The notes under the pieces are model-generated. The model searched no databases and was not told where the DNA came from. It worked only from the letters and a program-made list of their open reading frames with translations. Shown piece after piece: positions 1-5,744 of a DNA stretch of 5,764 bases. The stretch lies in the NCBI RefSeq assembly GCF_003231495.1, contig NZ_PQWO01000054.1, positions 1-5,764 on the forward strand, in the 5' to 3' direction. The position numbers and the translations under genes are program-made. Source of the stretch: Acaryochloris thomasi RCC1774 (GTDB taxonomy: Bacteria; Cyanobacteriota; Cyanobacteriia; Thermosynechococcales; Thermosynechococcaceae). The first letter of the stretch is position 1. Each line of letters starts with the position of its first letter.

Positions 1-59
1 CTCACGAGATAGAGGTGGTCGGAGAACAGCACAAGCATTTTAGAGACACATTGCCATGA
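1..59 (+). CDS. 3' end of a gene entering from upstream of the window (partial, product unknown)
   Basis: Frame 3 is open from the window edge and reads ..HEIEVVGEQHKHFRDTLP. Its TGA at 57-59 overlaps the ATG at 56-58 (ATGA). Only 18 codons are visible. Confidence 0.35.
   Translation, partial: HEIEVVGEQHKHFRDTLP
24..59 (+). repeat. Copy A of a ~36-nt direct repeat (gene 3' end + ATGA junction)
   Basis: GAACAGCACAAGCATTTTAGAGACACATTGCCATGA aligns with 118-154 GAACAGCAGCAGGCATTTTAGTGACGTATTGCCATGA. There are a few substitutions and one 1-nt indel. Confidence 0.8.
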
Positions 60-154
60 CCACCCAACTAGCCCTACCCTGGCCGTCCCCGGAAACACGC
101 ACTTTCGTAAGACCCCAGAACAGCAGCAGGCATTTTAGTGACGTATTGCCATGA
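56..154 (+). pseudogene. 32-codon mosaic ORF, interpreted as a recombination scar: decayed PP-loop gene 5' end fused to a decayed copy of the upstream gene's 3' end
   Basis: ATG 56 to TGA 152-154 gives MTTQLALPWPSPETRTFVRPQNSSRHFSDVLP. The first ~9 codons resemble the starts at 401 (MNTQLSLPF) and 913 (MNTQLELAL). The last codons (RHFSDVLP*) copy the end of the upstream gene (KHFRDTLP*), including the ATGA overlap. Nucleotide similarity continues upstream of a 1-nt indel in a different frame, which argues for a non-coding relic. Confidence 0.45.
118..154 (+). repeat. Copy B of the ~36-nt direct repeat (gene 3' end + ATGA junction)
   Basis: See 24-59. It ends in ATGA, where ATG 151 starts the 73-aa ORF. 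Confidence 0.8.
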
Positions 155-372
155 AATTCTTAATCCAATTAAGGGATTCCAATAGCTACTACCCTACTCG
201 CTGGACAGTATCTTTCCACGAGAAACCGATAGGTACGATCTCCCGGCCAGTCGGTTCAGAGACCTATCACGCAATTCCAGTGAGGCTCGGGGTTCCCATC
301 CTCCAGGATGGAGACATTCGAGAATTCCTAACCAAAGAAGCTGCGGCAGCAGAGCTATGGAATGCCTATTAG
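151..372 (+). CDS. Hypothetical small protein (73 aa)
   Basis: ORF-track ORF with ATG start in an ATGA overlap with the preceding 32-codon frame. No motif recognised. The antisense ORF 194-412 is less plausible. Confidence 0.55.
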   Translation: MKFLIQLRDSNSYYPTRWTVSFHEKPIGTISRPVGSETYHAIPVRLGVPILQDGDIREFLTKEAAAAELWNAY

Positions 373-400
373 TCAATAGCAGAGAGGGTTTTAAGCAGAA

Positions 401-520
401 ATGAATACGCAACTGTCCCTTCCGTTCTGCCAGCCTGCTCAGCCCCCACCGCTTAGCAAATACGATCGCACCATCATTGCCTTCAGTGGTGGGAAAGACT
501 CCCTAGCCTGCGTCCTGTGG
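401..520 (+). repeat. Diverged direct repeat of the first 120 nt of the PP-loop gene (copy 1)
   Basis: My codon-by-codon hand alignment with 913-1032 gives about 82/120 nt and 29/40 aa identical. Segments 494-520 and 1006-1032 are identical over 27 nt. Similarity ends abruptly after 520/1032. Confidence 0.9.
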
Positions 521-916
521 ACCACTTTTCATGCCAACAAGGAGAACAATATGGTTTTCGACAATGCATTCACGGATCAGATGATGTACGGACAACATGC
601 CGTTAGGGTTCCAGCTTGGCTCTATACACAACCAGGGAAGGAAGAAGTCATCTTCGTTGGAGCAACAAAGGATCTTAGAGCAAGCCACGGCAACCAGAGA
701 ACCCACCAATTCATGCTGGGTGAAATTATTCTACGGCCTCACTTTGCTGTCGCTTCAGACAATTTTAGAGGCCACGGTGCAACCGCACTGCTCACGGCGA
801 ATCACATGGACTTCCTTCTTGCAGATGACATGGAAGTCATTTGCGATCCAATGGGTAAGCTCGGAACACTTTGCGACAGATACAGCAAACAGATACAGGC
901 AATCACGGGGCAATGA
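401..916 (+). CDS. Chimeric ORF (171 aa): 40-aa PP-loop N-terminal fragment (includes SGGKDS) fused in frame to an unrelated ~121-aa hypothetical protein
   Basis: The N-terminus MNTQLSLPFCQPAQPPPLSKYDRTIIAFSGGKDSLACVLW duplicates the start of the 913 gene. The remainder has no similarity to it. A strong internal start signal exists (AAGGAG at 539-544, 6-nt spacer, ATG 551), so the functional product may be 551-916 (MVFDNAFTDQ..., 121 aa). The stop TGA 914-916 overlaps ATG 913 (ATGA). Confidence 0.6.
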   Translation: MNTQLSLPFCQPAQPPPLSKYDRTIIAFSGGKDSLACVLWTTFHANKENNMVFDNAFTDQMMYGQHAVRVPAWLYTQPGKEEVIFVGATKDLRASHGNQRTHQFMLGEIILRPHFAVASDNFRGHGATALLTANHMDFLLADDMEVICDPMGKLGTLCDRYSKQIQAITGQ

Positions 917-1032
917 ACACCCAGCTTGAATTAGCGCTTAATGAACCTGCTGCCCTCCCTCCCCCAGAAGCGTACGACCGCACGGTAATCGCCTTCAGTG
1001 GCGGCAAAGACTCCCTAGCCTGCGTCCTGTGG
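913..1032 (+). repeat. Direct repeat of the PP-loop gene 5' end (copy 2, inside the intact gene)
   Basis: See 401-520. Confidence 0.9.
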
Positions 1033-2905: not shown

Positions 2906-3133
2906 CTAAACGCCGGAGAGTGATCTCGTTATAACAACGACAGAAGCTCCGATAATTCCAGCCCAGGCCGTACCAATGAGAGCAAGGGTCAAACCCCACA
3001 ACCGACCATCCCACTTTTCTACCTTGGCATTGGTGGCCTTGATATCTACATCAATCGTCGTAAGCCGATTATCAATGGCATCAAAACGACTCAATACCTT
3101 TTGCTCAAATGATTCCGGTGTTGCCTGCGTCAT
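2906..3133 (-). CDS. Small membrane protein (75 aa): N-terminal coiled-coil-like segment plus one C-terminal TM helix, an XhlA/holin-like architecture
   Basis: The hydrophilic heptad-like N-terminus (FEQKVLSRFDAIDNRLTTIDVDIKATNAKVEKWDGR) is followed by LWGLTLALIGTAWAGIIGASVVVI. The ATG overlaps the upstream stop as ATGA (3130-3133, minus strand). Confidence 0.7.
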   Translation of the reverse strand: MTQATPESFEQKVLSRFDAIDNRLTTIDVDIKATNAKVEKWDGRLWGLTLALIGTAWAGIIGASVVVITRSLSGV

Positions 3134-3354
3134 ATCAAACCCTCACGCTCTGCAGCTTCACGGATCACCCGTCTCAGCCACGCTGACTTATTCGGAAGCC
3201 GATCAACCGCAGCTTCCACCTCAGGCTCCAAACAAGTGCCTGTAGTACGCCGAGACAACTTGGGCGCAACTTCAGAATCAAGGCGAACTGAGCGAAGATG
3301 TTCAGTCTTTGGCGAAGGATTGGGCATATATGCATCATAAGCAGGATAGAACAA
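3130..3354 (-). CDS. Putative ribbon-helix-helix (CopG/Arc/MetJ-like) DNA-binding protein, first gene of the minus-strand operon
   Basis: The C-terminal TCLEPEVEAAVDRLPNKSAWLRRVIREAAEREGLI has a strand-helix-helix pattern. An earlier SVRLDSEVAPKL segment repeats the strand motif. The longest start is TTG 3354; ATG at 3327 (MPNPSPK...) is the more conventional start. The gene lies next to the 24-bp palindrome. Confidence 0.7.
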   Translation of the reverse strand: MFYPAYDAYMPNPSPKTEHLRSVRLDSEVAPKLSRRTTGTCLEPEVEAAVDRLPNKSAWLRRVIREAAEREGLI

Positions 3355-3415
3355 TCTTAACTTAGCCCATCATCATGAATTCCTTCAATGTAAACTTTCT
3401 AAAATAAAGTCTTTT

Positions 3416-3439
3416 TGTATGCATCATATGATGCATACA
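3416..3439. promoter_or_regulatory. Perfect 24-bp palindrome TGTATGCATCATATGATGCATACA in the divergent intergenic region: candidate operator (or oriT inverted repeat)
   Basis: Verified as self-complementary base by base. It sits in the AT-rich 187-bp spacer between the divergent operons (3354 leftward, 3542 rightward), next to the RHH gene. Confidence 0.6.
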
Positions 3440-3442
3440 TGA

Positions 3443-3449
3443 TATTATA
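3443..3449. promoter_or_regulatory. Overlapping candidate -10 hexamers: TATTAT on + (3443-3448) and TATAAT on - (3449-3444)
   Basis: The hexamers are read directly and lie immediately right of the palindrome. I found no convincing -35 at 17-bp spacing on either strand, so the promoter calls are tentative. Confidence 0.35.
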
Positions 3450-3541
3450 GATACATACAAACAAAGCAAAGCCACCGCCCAATCCCGGAAAGAAACAAGC
3501 GGTGACGATGCACTCCCAAGACTAATCAGGAGATTTCCATT

Positions 3542-3817
3542 ATGACTATTTCCCTCGCCCCTGCAACAGCCCAGCAGTCGCAACTCTTCTGTGTCGATGC
3601 CGAAGTCGAGCAGTTCGACCCACTCAACGAGTGCATGGTCCGCGAAGATTACACCTTCGCCTGTGAGCGCAAAGGCGGTTACGTCCAACGCATCAAAGCC
3701 TGGGTTGCAACCAATTGCACCTTTGGTACTGTTGCCCCCAACCTTATCGAGCTGTATTGCTCTGAATGGAAGACAGCAGCAGACGACCGTATCGCAGCCA
3801 TCGACGACCAGTTCTAA
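3542..3817 (+). CDS. Hypothetical acidic small protein (91 aa, 5 Cys), first gene of the plus-strand operon
   Basis: ATG 3542 is preceded by AGGAG (3528-3532) with a 9-nt spacer. I count 14 D/E versus 7 K/R. No motif recognised. Confidence 0.75.
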   Translation: MTISLAPATAQQSQLFCVDAEVEQFDPLNECMVREDYTFACERKGGYVQRIKAWVATNCTFGTVAPNLIELYCSEWKTAADDRIAAIDDQF

Positions 3818-3895
3818 GCACCAGGGGGCCGCAGCGCCCCCATCGCCTCACCATTGCAAACCCCAGCGCTACAGGGGACTACGCGAGAAATACTC
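3818..3895 (+). repeat. Intergenic module copy 1 (GC hairpin + C-run/G-run element + RBS region)
   Basis: GGGGGC-CGCAGC-GCCCCC at 3824-3841, then CCCC-N9-GGGG at 3861-3877 containing CGCTACA, then GAGAAATA..ATG. It aligns with 4094-4171 and 4550-4625. Confidence 0.8.
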
Positions 3896-4093
3896 ATGCT
3901 TGAAGTTTCAGCCGCTCCAATCCCAGACACCTGGACTGCCTCAGACTCCAATGATGACCCTGAGATATTCGCAGTCAGCACGGGAAACTCACCAGACCAA
4001 GCGATCGCAAACTACTTCGACAATTGCTTAGAGCAAGATCCCCATTACATGAACGATTCGTCTGAATTCGTTCGCTTCATGCGGACCTACTAA
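3896..4093 (+). CDS. Hypothetical very acidic small protein (65 aa from ATG 3896)
   Basis: The ORF track starts at TTG 3854, inside the conserved intergenic module. ATG 3896 sits at the same module position as the starts of the next two genes. I count 8 D + 4 E versus 2 R and 0 K. Confidence 0.7.
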   Translation: MLEVSAAPIPDTWTASDSNDDPEIFAVSTGNSPDQAIANYFDNCLEQDPHYMNDSSEFVRFMRTY

Positions 4094-4171
4094 CGCAAAC
4101 AACAGGGGCCATAGCGCCCCCGCCGCATACCTTCCGTAAACCCATCGCTACAAGGGACAGGAGAAATATAC
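4094..4171 (+). repeat. Intergenic module copy 2
   Basis: GGGGC-CATAGC-GCCCC at 4105-4120, then CCC-N10-GGG at 4141-4156 containing CGCTACA, then AGGAGAAATATAC-ATG. Confidence 0.8.
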
Positions 4172-4549
4172 ATGATTACCGCAGAAGCACTTCAGCAAAA
4201 TCTCGCGCATTGCACCGGCACCGAGCAATGGTACCGGCATCCACTGGGAATCACTTACACAGACGGCATCAAGATATTGACCGAGGATGCCCAGTGTATG
4301 TGGCTTGTGGATGCGATCACATCTCACCAAAAAAGCTACCAGATTATATACAACCCTGACCTACAAGAGTTCCAGCTCTGGCTGCTGAAAGTTAATGAGG
4401 ATCGCAGCGCAATCCTAGCCTGCTACGAAGACAGCCCCAGCACTTGCGAACCTGCGATCAGCCAGCTAATCCCCTCCACGGACTTCCCGATGCAGGAAAT
4501 CAAGCTTTATATGGAGCAAGGAACACTACTGCTTCCCTCAGAACACTAA
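4172..4549 (+). CDS. Small acidic protein (125 aa), paralogue 1 of a tandem pair; DUF6876-like by recollection
   Basis: ATG 4172 follows GGAG. It shares with the next gene the motifs YTDG, WLV.AI..HQK, LQ.FQ.W, CY, FP and G.L.LPSE. I count 17 D/E versus 6 K/R. Confidence 0.85.
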   Translation: MITAEALQQNLAHCTGTEQWYRHPLGITYTDGIKILTEDAQCMWLVDAITSHQKSYQIIYNPDLQEFQLWLLKVNEDRSAILACYEDSPSTCEPAISQLIPSTDFPMQEIKLYMEQGTLLLPSEH

Positions 4550-4625
4550 AGCCATCGGGGGCCACAGCGTCCCCGCAGCAATACAAACGCCCGACCACTG
4601 CAAGGGCCATACAGGAGTAAGACCC
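4550..4625 (+). repeat. Intergenic module copy 3
   Basis: GGGGGC-CACAGC-GTCCCC at 4557-4574 (one G.U pair), then GCCC-N11-GGGC at 4589-4607, then AGGAGTAAGACCC-ATG. Confidence 0.8.
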
Positions 4626-5000
4626 ATGAAACCGAAAGAACTTGAGCAACGGCTCAGGCAGTTTCAGCCTAGCCCCACTCGCCACCGACATTTCACTGGG
4701 CTTTTATACACCGATGGAATTCTATACATCATTGAAAAGCTTGAAATTGAGTGGTTAGTACTTGCGATCGCCACTCACCAGAAAGGCACCAGCATCACAG
4801 CTAGCAAAGAACTACAGCAATTCCAATGCTGGAAATTTCACAATGGCAGCACTCCTGTCCTGTTTTGCTACAGGGATAGGCTCAACACATCTCCAGAATT
4901 TGGCCGTCAAGTCCGTGCTACAGCCTTCCCCTTGCCTGAACTAGAGCTATTCGTTGTCGAGGGTTGTCTCATGCTGCCCTCGGAATACGAAGGCTCCTGA
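4626..5000 (+). CDS. Small protein (124 aa), paralogue 2 of the tandem pair; DUF6876-like by recollection
   Basis: ATG 4626 is preceded by AGGAG. It is collinear with 4172-4549, at roughly 30 percent identity by eye, with the same conserved motifs and C-terminal LPSEY. Charge is near neutral. Confidence 0.85.
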   Translation: MKPKELEQRLRQFQPSPTRHRHFTGLLYTDGILYIIEKLEIEWLVLAIATHQKGTSITASKELQQFQCWKFHNGSTPVLFCYRDRLNTSPEFGRQVRATAFPLPELELFVVEGCLMLPSEYEGS

Positions 5001-5261: not shown

Positions 5262-5744
5262 ATGAAGACACTACGGCCCCTCGGGTTCGGCGAATCCCTC
5301 CGAACCCTGTATATCTATGCTCACAGAGCCAACGGAAATAAACTCTGGTTTCAGCTCATCGACAGCGAACCTCAGGAACTACCCCCGTCCCTCACCGGCT
5401 ATCTCAAAGCCATCGAATTTCCCAAGGTCGAACGACGGGGAAAAGAGTGCTGCAAACTCAATATCACCCTGACCGCACACCGGCCCGTCGTCATCGAATG
5501 CGGTCATGATTCTACTTTTGCGAAAAGTTTCATGGTTGCGATCGCAAGTCTAACACCAGCTCAACTGCAGCAGCCGATTACTCTTGAGGCCCAGCCGGGA
5601 ACGCAGGATGAATCTGTTCTGTTTTGCAATGTGTGGCTAGGGTACAAGCGCATCTTTCTGGAGTGGGACGAGAACACCGACTGGAGAGCCGTCGCTGGGC
5701 AGGCGATCGCTAACGTTCGGGCAGCTCAGGGGGTGAGGGCATGA
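5262..5744 (+). CDS. Hypothetical protein (160 aa)
   Basis: ATG 5262 follows AAGGAGG (5248-5254). It is tightly packed with its neighbours, and its stop overlaps the next ATG as ATGA (5741-5744). No motif recognised. Confidence 0.8.
   Translation: MKTLRPLGFGESLRTLYIYAHRANGNKLWFQLIDSEPQELPPSLTGYLKAIEFPKVERRGKECCKLNITLTAHRPVVIECGHDSTFAKSFMVAIASLTPAQLQQPITLEAQPGTQDESVLFCNVWLGYKRIFLEWDENTDWRAVAGQAIANVRAAQGVRA

Follow-up and report, generated by a model that had tools for sequence, protein, structure and literature searches.

The window analysed here is the whole 5764-bp contig NZ_PQWO01000054.1 of the Acaryochloris thomasi RCC1774 draft genome, and the feature under study comprises its positions 1-1032 together with the rest of a PP-loop gene of the PAPS-reductase family, which starts at 913 and ends at 1917. 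Ahead of this intact gene lie two truncated copies of its own 5' end (hereafter heads) and two 3' ends of a DUF6283-family gene, with small open reading frames (ORFs) in between. The repeats are real and unusually legible recombination scars in a plasmid-type accessory array, and the event that they record is of an ordinary, known kind. In our judgement the region is fairly likely to be the footprint of at least two one-sided recombinations with diverged paralogous arrays, each of which would have imported an upstream gene together with a foreign head and left a scar. It is an evolutionary footprint, not a device, and it sits among small accessory genes arrayed in a single direction, an arrangement known from conjugative plasmids of Acaryochloris. 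The locus offers a clean, datable example of how a small-gene array of a cyanobacterial plasmid is rebuilt, truncated gene heads being left behind.

Two Well-Matched Heads of the PP-Loop Gene

The features of the region are given below. L004 denotes a 2131-bp Logan metagenome contig, the closest relative of the locus, whose PP-loop protein is 80% identical to that of the window.

1-59, plus strand: 3' end of a DUF6283-family gene (HEIEVVGEQHKHFRDTLP*) entering from the left contig end, read from the frame-3 translation; its stop (57-59) overlaps the ATG at 56
56-115, plus strand: scar 1, an old, decayed PP-loop 5' head (MTTQLALPWPSP...) of about 20 codons, the first part of an ORF of 32 amino acids (aa) at 56-154
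116-154, plus strand: second, more diverged DUF6283 3' end (..RHFSDVLP*) with the same ATGA overlap, the in-frame tail of the ORF at 56-154
151-372, plus strand: ORF73, an orphan small gene from the ORF list, with its start in the ATGA that closes the duplicated DUF6283 tail and without a Shine-Dalgarno sequence of its own
401-523, plus strand: scar 2, a well-kept 5' head of the PP-loop gene, 41 codons including the SGGKDS motif, recognized by homology to L004 and to the gene at 913
494-520, plus strand: left copy of a 27-nucleotide (nt) direct repeat (27/27 against 1006-1032), the putative crossover zone
524-550, plus strand: linker with a ribosome-binding site, AAGGAG (539-544), 6 nt ahead of the ATG at 551, by direct reading
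551-916, plus strand: ORF121, a member of an uncharacterised conserved family (exhaustive HMMER search); its stop (914-916) overlaps the PP-loop ATG at 913
913-1005, plus strand: diverged 5' head (MNTQLELALNEPAALPPPEAYDRTVIAFSGG) of the intact gene, sharing 30 of its first 60 nt with L004
913-1917, plus strand: intact PP-loop/PAPS-reductase-family gene, 334 aa (PF01507), the conserved anchor of the locus
1006-1032, plus strand: right copy of the perfect 27-nt direct repeat (repeat finder, alignment)

An earlier note, made from the sequence alone, had reported that the start of the gene at 913 recurs at 401-520, and all of its counts proved exact: 82 of 120 nt and 29 of 40 aa are identical between 401-520 and 913-1032, with a run of 27/27 nt. 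The local score of this repeat (48) was reached by none of 1000 dinucleotide shuffles, and a repeat finder aligned 461-524 with 973-1036 at 88% identity. Along the two heads the identity rises in steps, from 29/60 (48%) through 26/33 (79%) to 27/27 (100%) at 494-520 and 1006-1032, a perfect direct repeat, and then falls to 15/60 (25%) beyond the breakpoint, which is the random level. Compared as DNA, the first 60 nt stand at chance (627 of 1000 shuffles), and similarity there exists at the protein level only. The breakpoint lies at 520-524, with microhomology of at most 3 nt (CCA). A continuation of the PP-loop homology past 524 into the region of the ribosome-binding site was ruled out by the same 15 identical positions in 60.

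The perfect run needs explanation in its own right. Third codon positions of the two heads differ at 6/11 sites just upstream and at 0/9 within it (P ~8e-4), and Fisher tests on the run gave 0.013 against nt 61-93 and 9e-6 against nt 1-93. L004 departs from both 27-nt copies at 5/27 sites, all of them synonymous. Because of these five synonymous differences and the third-position contrast, the identity exceeds what conservation of the SGGKDS motif would give. The steps of 48, 79, 100 and 25% end at the breakpoint, as a crossover beside an illegitimate join predicts, and they support the recombination model.

The head at 401-523 has a codon score of +0.18. Its 41 aa reach 14.6 bits against PF01171 (cut-off 27), that is, the motif is present and the score sub-threshold. 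The fragment is a remnant and not a member of the PAPS_reduct family.

The Upstream Gene and the Older Scar

The part of the left gene that falls within the window amounts to 18 residues, too few for the PF19800 (DUF6283) model. Positions 1-56 match the upstream gene of L004 at 44/56 nt (79%) and 16/18 aa, and the 119-aa product of that gene, which ends ...MIEVVGEQHKHFRDTLPTEVSQPHES, scores 40.2 bits against PF19800 (cut-off 27); on this ground the left gene is assigned to DUF6283. In L004 the order is unsplit, DUF6283 and then PP-loop. The earlier view that the pieces at this locus are scars of one gene pair is upheld by the DUF6283 identity and by this order. The unsplit junction that it had predicted was found in part: the gene order is as expected, but the ATGA stop/start overlap is replaced in L004 by a 76-nt spacer, the DUF6283 protein being nine residues longer.

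The DUF6283 tail is duplicated. Positions 22-59 and 116-154 share 33/37 nt plus one 1-nt gap, a score that 0/1000 shuffles reached, and the second tail matches that of L004 at ~25/33 nt. This places the repeat proposed for 24-59 and 118-154 above chance. The indel in the second copy had been thought to break the frame; its shift is confined to the first 3-4 codons of the copy, and no frame is closed by it. The stretch 56-154 is a single open ORF of 32 aa, with its final nine codons in the DUF6283 frame and its stop overlapping the ATG at 151.

The decayed copy claimed for 56-85 is a subtler case. By free local alignment it is weak (score 11, reached by 65-72 of 1000 shuffles), with its best match across the whole window at position 401. 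A start-anchored test of 56-91 bore the claim out at ~5e-4: 7/12 aa and 18-20/36 nt are shared with the three other PP-loop starts, and only 4e-4 to 7e-4 of 7149 ATG-opened frames (89 sequences) matched equally well at the aa level, the few frames in this tail including true PP-loop starts themselves. The head also follows directly on the DUF6283 stop, in the next-gene slot that the PP-loop gene occupies in L004 (there beyond the spacer). The codon score of 56-115 and of its ORF (ORF32) is -0.13, of non-coding type, as expected for decayed sequence. At 113-116 there is no clear microhomology, and the limits of the join are approximate. A decayed left scar (7/12 aa, -0.13) and an intact right one (34/40 aa to L004, +0.18) fit a nested order of events.

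A local tandem duplication of the segment from DUF6283 tail through ATGA to PP-loop head, with later divergence and with unrelated DNA replacing parts between the copies, would account for some of these facts. The joint at 115/116, where a PP-loop head runs into a DUF6283 tail, is the one expected from duplicating a boundary-spanning segment, and all three heads of the window open with M(N/T)TQL, while L004 has MHQQL. However, ORF73 and not a PP-loop head follows the second DUF6283 tail, and ORF121 is not repeated upstream of 401. The two well-matched heads are about 50% different in their first 60 nt yet 100% identical at the breakpoint, and uniform decay gives no such profile. Moreover, the head at 401 is nearer to the gene of another organism than to its neighbour in cis. 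We therefore regard a tandem origin as unlikely.

Polarity of the Heads and a Model of Serial Recombination

With L004 as outgroup, the heads differ in their behaviour. The head at 401 matches L004 at 42/60, 30/33 and 22/27 nt by segment (94/120 nt, 34/40 aa or 85%; 77% of the first 93 nt). For the head at 913 the values are 30/60, 26/33 and 22/27 nt, with 26/40 aa and 60% of the first 93 nt. The body of the PP-loop gene matches L004 at ~75% nt, and the first 60 nt at 913 form the lowest bin of the gene. In a chimera of the 401 head and the body from nt 94 onwards this low first bin is gone (30 -> 42 of 60). A second relative, on a JGI contig (L005, 71%), carries QLSL.F and RTIIAF, as the 401 head does. 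Since the 401 head matches the outgroup at the gene-wide rate while the 913 head is the outlier, the former looks resident: it probably once formed the 5' end of the body whose sequence now resumes at 1006, and ORF121 together with 913-1005 probably came in. The earlier note had derived the 401 copy from a diverged homologue rather than from a recent local duplication; an origin of the two heads from diverged homologues is supported, but the polarity is probably the reverse.

The model that we favour may be put as follows. Each event would be one-sided, by homology-facilitated illegitimate recombination (HFIR) or by an unequal exchange of like effect. Incoming DNA would pair at its right end with the conserved 5' portion of the PP-loop gene, and its left end would be joined illegitimately inside the head of the resident gene, so that the truncated resident head is displaced upstream as a scar, the oldest standing leftmost. 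In the older event, an arrangement DUF6283-ATGA-PP-loop(A) would have received DUF6283' tail-ATGA-ORF73-PP-loop(B), a fragment that opened with the last 12 codons of a paralogous DUF6283 gene, and head A would have been left at 56-115. In the recent event, PP-loop(B) would have received the ribosome-binding site, ORF121, ATGA and the head of PP-loop(C), through a crossover within nt 94-120, inside the 27 identical bases, and an illegitimate join at 520-524. Head B would then remain at 401-523, along with the perfect direct repeat. Through recombination between the two 27-nt copies, the ORF121 segment of 512 bp could be lost again and an intact gene restored. That one end of the insert was joined by homologous crossover is indicated indirectly, by the identity profile, which gene conversion could mimic. 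Suitable partners exist in the genus: the Acaryochloris marina plasmids pREB7 and pREB8 share a 4.6-kb block of 91-94% identity around a DUF6876 gene and the PAPS-reductase gene, with different flanks.

Several points weigh against this model. The polarity depends on a single close relative and on ~90 nt of a family-variable region. The intact gene could have been of one lineage throughout, with a fast-evolving head, the 27-nt identity being due to gene conversion. The visible crossover homology is 64 nt at 88%, of which 27 nt are perfect, and experimental HFIR anchors are roughly 150 nt or more, longer than the homology here. Microhomology at the illegitimate join does not exceed 3 nt. A donor (DUF6283'-ORF73-PP-loop, or ORF121-PP-loop with an MNTQLELAL head) was absent from 91 loci, plasmids and phages, a search that did not cover the other contigs of the strain; a scan of genome contigs with the PP-loop protein returned a Hydrogenophaga locus only. 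None of 86 related loci carries a comparable scar, which makes the locus a one-off. Two in-frame scars would arise by chance in about 1/9 of cases, and the contig comes from a short-read draft at 20x.

The last point raises the question of an assembly artefact, in which reads of several paralogous plasmid arrays were joined at short shared sequences into a chimeric contig. The RCC1774 assembly (72 contigs; PMC6002478) was built from paired 160-nt MiSeq reads at 20x; this contig starts inside a gene, and Acaryochloris has paralogous arrays on several plasmids. The shared stretches, however, are 27-64 nt, shorter than the reads, so single reads span the repeats. Even a chimera joined at the 27-mer presupposes that somewhere this PP-loop 27-mer does precede ORF121, in a locus that would itself be scarred, and the joint at 115/116 offers no shared repeat that could mislead an assembler. 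An artefact is thus very unlikely.

The Small ORFs Between the Scars

The earlier note had placed unrelated small ORFs, 151-372 and 551-916, in the spaces between the repeat units. The AAGGAG-N6-ATG at 539-553 is present as described and ORF121 belongs to a real family, but 401-916 forms one uninterrupted 171-aa ORF (ORF171), in which the PP-loop head runs on in frame into ORF121. Neither ORF171 nor ORF121 had homologues in a word-indexed search, and the family was found only by an exhaustive HMMER search, with 79 representatives at E<=1e-3. Nearly all of them are stand-alone proteins of 100-130 aa that align from their own N-termini, and none of the five longer ORF121 homologues inspected carries a PP-loop head. 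Judging from these alignments, ORF121 represents a genuine stand-alone gene family, and since its homologues begin at the residue that corresponds to 551, the 50 additional aa are secondary. No model in Pfam, NCBIfam, PHROG or PADLOC matched the family. The AlphaFold2 (AF2) model of ORF121 is confident, with a predicted local distance difference test (pLDDT) of 89, and fold searches of PDB and BFVD gave no match at E<=0.001. ORF121 is therefore a conserved family without domain annotation, with a confident predicted fold and no solved or viral structure alike. Its invariant residues are G14, R62, P63 and G74, with H52 and H64 near-invariant. Homologues on Streptomyces plasmids lie within small-gene arrays near DNA methyltransferase or helicase genes.

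ORF73 is different in character. A search of 5.8 billion proteins and a plasmid tblastn search returned self-matches only, and Pfam, NCBIfam, PHROG and PADLOC gave no match. Its codon score of +0.11 is the top of the six frames, hence weakly coding-like, and its single-sequence AF2 model is poor (pLDDT 57). Whether its start could be a further decayed PP-loop head was considered and rejected, as by eye there is no similarity past the ATGA.

NCBI annotates the 171-aa fusion as a protein, C1752_17186. It appears to bear a PAPS-reductase-type UniRef name, beginning 'Phosphoadenosine phosph...'. Such naming is misleading, because only the first 41 residues are PP-loop-like and those belong to a gene remnant. 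As a gene remnant joined to an unrelated gene, C1752_17186 is unsuitable as a member of the family.

The open frames of the region are linked in a chain by ATGA stop/start overlaps at 56, 151 and 913, the sole exception being a 28-nt gap ahead of 401, and none of the four junction ORFs is interrupted. Free-standing starts in the window carry GGAG 6-10 nt upstream; those at 151 and 913 have no Shine-Dalgarno sequence. It is conceivable that only frame-preserving products survived, because the ATGA-start genes at 151 and 913 would need termination-reinitiation through the scar ORFs. Given the ~1/9 chance of two in-frame scars, this argument from translational coupling is not statistically supported.

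The scar ORFs might even be functional, with ORF171 as a selected fusion, or with ORF32 and the head of ORF171 as bridges for translational coupling; either would be compatible with an origin by recombination. Both ORFs keep their frame open and are bounded at either end by an ATGA overlap; the absence of Shine-Dalgarno sequences at 151 and 913 and the NCBI annotation of the 171-aa ORF point the same way. Yet the 50-aa extension is missing from all homologues, ORF121 has its own AAGGAG-N6-ATG, and the 41-aa head, with its sub-threshold PF01171 score, cannot form a PP-loop domain. The codon score of ORF32 is non-coding, and the two in-frame scars are within reach of chance. A function for the scar ORFs is accordingly improbable.

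Relatives of the Locus and the Hotspot Question

The earlier note had seen in this locus a cassette-acquisition hotspot anchored on a conserved gene junction. The relatives do not bear this out. A second PP-loop 5' fragment occurs in 0/86 other loci with PP-loop relatives, and alternative inserts at the same breakpoints were looked for in relatives and none was found. Variation among the neighbours of the PP-loop gene is as great downstream (71 ORFs in 60 clusters) as upstream (70 ORFs in 61 clusters). The junctions are marked by no inverted repeat, nor by a recombinase gene among the 15 window ORFs scanned. Among the fetched loci, the window and L004 alone have DUF6283 upstream of the PP-loop gene, and on three other plasmids checked the DUF6283 gene is not adjacent to a PAPS-reductase gene. 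The anchor would therefore seem to be the conserved PP-loop gene itself, not the gene junction. Likewise, of the proposal that the junction was split at least twice by recombination that imported small genes, the diverged heads and the incoming ORF121 with its real family support the splitting, but the conserved junction as anchor has to be given up.

A related explanation is site-specific cassette capture, in which an integron-like or other recombinase inserted small genes at the ATGA junction. It would agree with the position of the unit limits, each of which falls at a start codon or an ATGA, and with the extreme variability of PP-loop neighbours across the family. On the other hand, beyond gene homology the three junctions share no inverted repeat or motif, and the repeat finder gave no inverted repeats at 100-160, 373-400 and 520-550. 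A Pfam scan of 15 ORFs of the window, short ORFs not included, gave no recombinase domain. The breakpoints are intragenic and varied (PP-loop codons 20 and 41; 12 codons before the DUF6283 stop), and neither the equally variable downstream side nor the lack of scars in the other loci is what capture at the junction would lead one to expect. Of all the explanations considered, this is the least probable, and a highly improbable one.

Searches with DNA yielded little. Nothing was found for 1-1040 among plasmid and phage sequences, and the whole window gave two short DUF6876 matches only, on Acaryochloris plasmids. Viral contigs searched for the junction pattern yielded zero matches.

Comparison With Known Systems

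The closest parallel is with the C-terminal displacement arrays of Rhs, contact-dependent inhibition (CDI) and type VI secretion system (T6SS) effector loci, strings of orphan 3' fragments for which HFIR has been proposed as the origin (PMC5361080). As in those arrays, a conserved gene part anchors the incoming DNA, and the resident fragment is displaced and stacked by age; displaced fragments retain a piece of the conserved region, here the 64 nt at 88% with its perfect core. Partial copies stand beside the intact gene, the older (56-115) more decayed than the younger (401-523). Unlike there, 5' heads are pushed upstream, a mirror image of 3' tips pushed downstream. The gene is a PAPS-reductase-like enzyme and not a polymorphic toxin, its cargo consists of unrelated small genes and not of toxin-tip/immunity pairs (ORF73 and ORF121 matched no toxin or immunity family), and there is one locus with two events and no sign of reuse of displaced heads.

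One may go further and see in the PP-loop gene a general, portable homology anchor by which plasmid accessory arrays capture upstream genes. Only frame-open products would persist, since expression of the downstream genes would depend on ATGA termination-reinitiation, and the short direct repeats would make each capture reversible. We consider this quite unlikely. If true, it would be the 5' displacement counterpart of Rhs C-terminal displacement, and if the pattern were general, the Rhs/T6SS displacement model would extend to plasmid accessory arrays; one locus is an anecdote.

HFIR itself was reportedly defined experimentally by de Vries and Wackernagel in 2002, Prudhomme et al. in 2002 and Meier and Wackernagel in 2003, and is said to occur in E. 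coli conjugation as well. Its non-homologous join typically lies at 3-10 nt of microhomology. Alike, on the proposed model, are the one-sided homologous crossover beside a putative non-homologous join and the gain of foreign DNA, ~390-490 nt here. The differences are that at the present locus the mechanism is read from sequence alone, that the visible homology is short, that microhomology amounts to no more than 3 nt, and that no donor was found.

Variable small-gene arrays of conjugative plasmids (leading-region, anti-defence-type islands) form the wider context, as far as the work of Samuel et al. (2024) is cited in PMC13551039, and phage and plasmid PAPS reductases have been discussed as possible DNA-modification or anti-defence genes (PMC13551039). 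The window resembles such islands in its same-strand array of small, mostly uncharacterised genes with high turnover, and in having relatives on MOBF/MPF_T plasmids and next to a TrwC relaxase gene. It differs in that neither a relaxase nor an oriT is present in the window, and an anti-defence role of the genes here is not demonstrated. With integron cassette arrays it shares the serial gain of promoter-less small genes and the pushing along of older material, but the window contains no integrase, attI or attC (at 5.8 kb it is short enough for an integrase to lie beyond it), and its breakpoints are intragenic at different positions.

The Intact PP-Loop Gene and Its Family

The gene at 913-1917 fits the PAPS-reductase family, with 47.3 bits against PF01507 (PAPS_reduct; cut-off 22.5) and SGGKDS at residues 29-34. 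It matches phrog_424 at 9e-36, gives partial matches to BrxP, DndC and SspD, and its 334-aa product is 100% identical to C1752_17187. There are 3752 homologues of the protein. Relatives occur in 1586 plasmid records, of which 1151 are typed conjugative. In A. marina they lie on pREB7 and pREB8, both MOBF/MPF_T conjugative plasmids, within same-strand arrays of small hypothetical genes, and in L005 the array is divergent from the TrwC relaxase gene. The variable neighbourhood of this gene suggests an accessory or anti-defence-type plasmid region. Among the loci L001-L092, further neighbours of the PP-loop gene are NADAR, DUF4031, SprT-like and DUF4326 genes.

Two tandem DUF6876 paralogues, 4172-4549 and 4626-5000, are 35% identical to each other, and the first is 63% identical to the gene directly upstream of the PAPS-reductase gene in pREB7 and pREB8. 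As DUF6876 adjoins the PAPS-reductase gene upstream on those plasmids, the window holds the same genes in a different order. Downstream of the PP-loop gene, a 192-aa ORF (1997-2575) has an N-terminal CCSFC cysteine cluster; it found no match in Pfam, NCBIfam, PHROGs or PADLOC, and among the fetched loci only a 28-aa match in L087.

Other Features of the Contig

The HIP1 motif (GCGATCGC) occurs 7 times in the window against 0.1 expected, which fits a cyanobacterium. Both contig ends are intragenic: the DUF6283 gene enters at the left, and an ATGA-overlapped ORF (MSFLDEKV...) starting at 5741 exits at the right; repeats shared with other parts of the genome may have ended the contig at these points. 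Scans of 1-1032 with Rfam, for tRNA and for promoters and terminators gave nothing relevant, and the promoter/terminator scan of the plus strand over 1-1917 found no terminator-like and no notable promoter-like site.

Further along, an intergenic module of ~78 nt is present in three copies (3818-3895, 4094-4171 and 4550-4625), ahead of three successive small genes starting at 3896, 4172 and 4626. Its layout is a G+C-rich hairpin (GGGGGCC..GCGCCCCC, without a T-run), followed by CTACAAGGG, GGAG and ATG. In 88 related loci no copy of it was found. What is repeated here may be a terminator, a processing unit or a promoter unit, or else a border at which genes are exchanged.

A perfect 22-nt palindrome, GTATGCATCATATGATGCATAC, lies at 3417-3438, with a related half-site at 3329-3348. 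The surrounding region, 3355-3541, is AT-rich and separates a minus-strand ORF (3130-3354) from the plus-strand array that begins at 3542; it is probably an operator/promoter region. The arrays of A. marina likewise have a divergent small regulator gene upstream.

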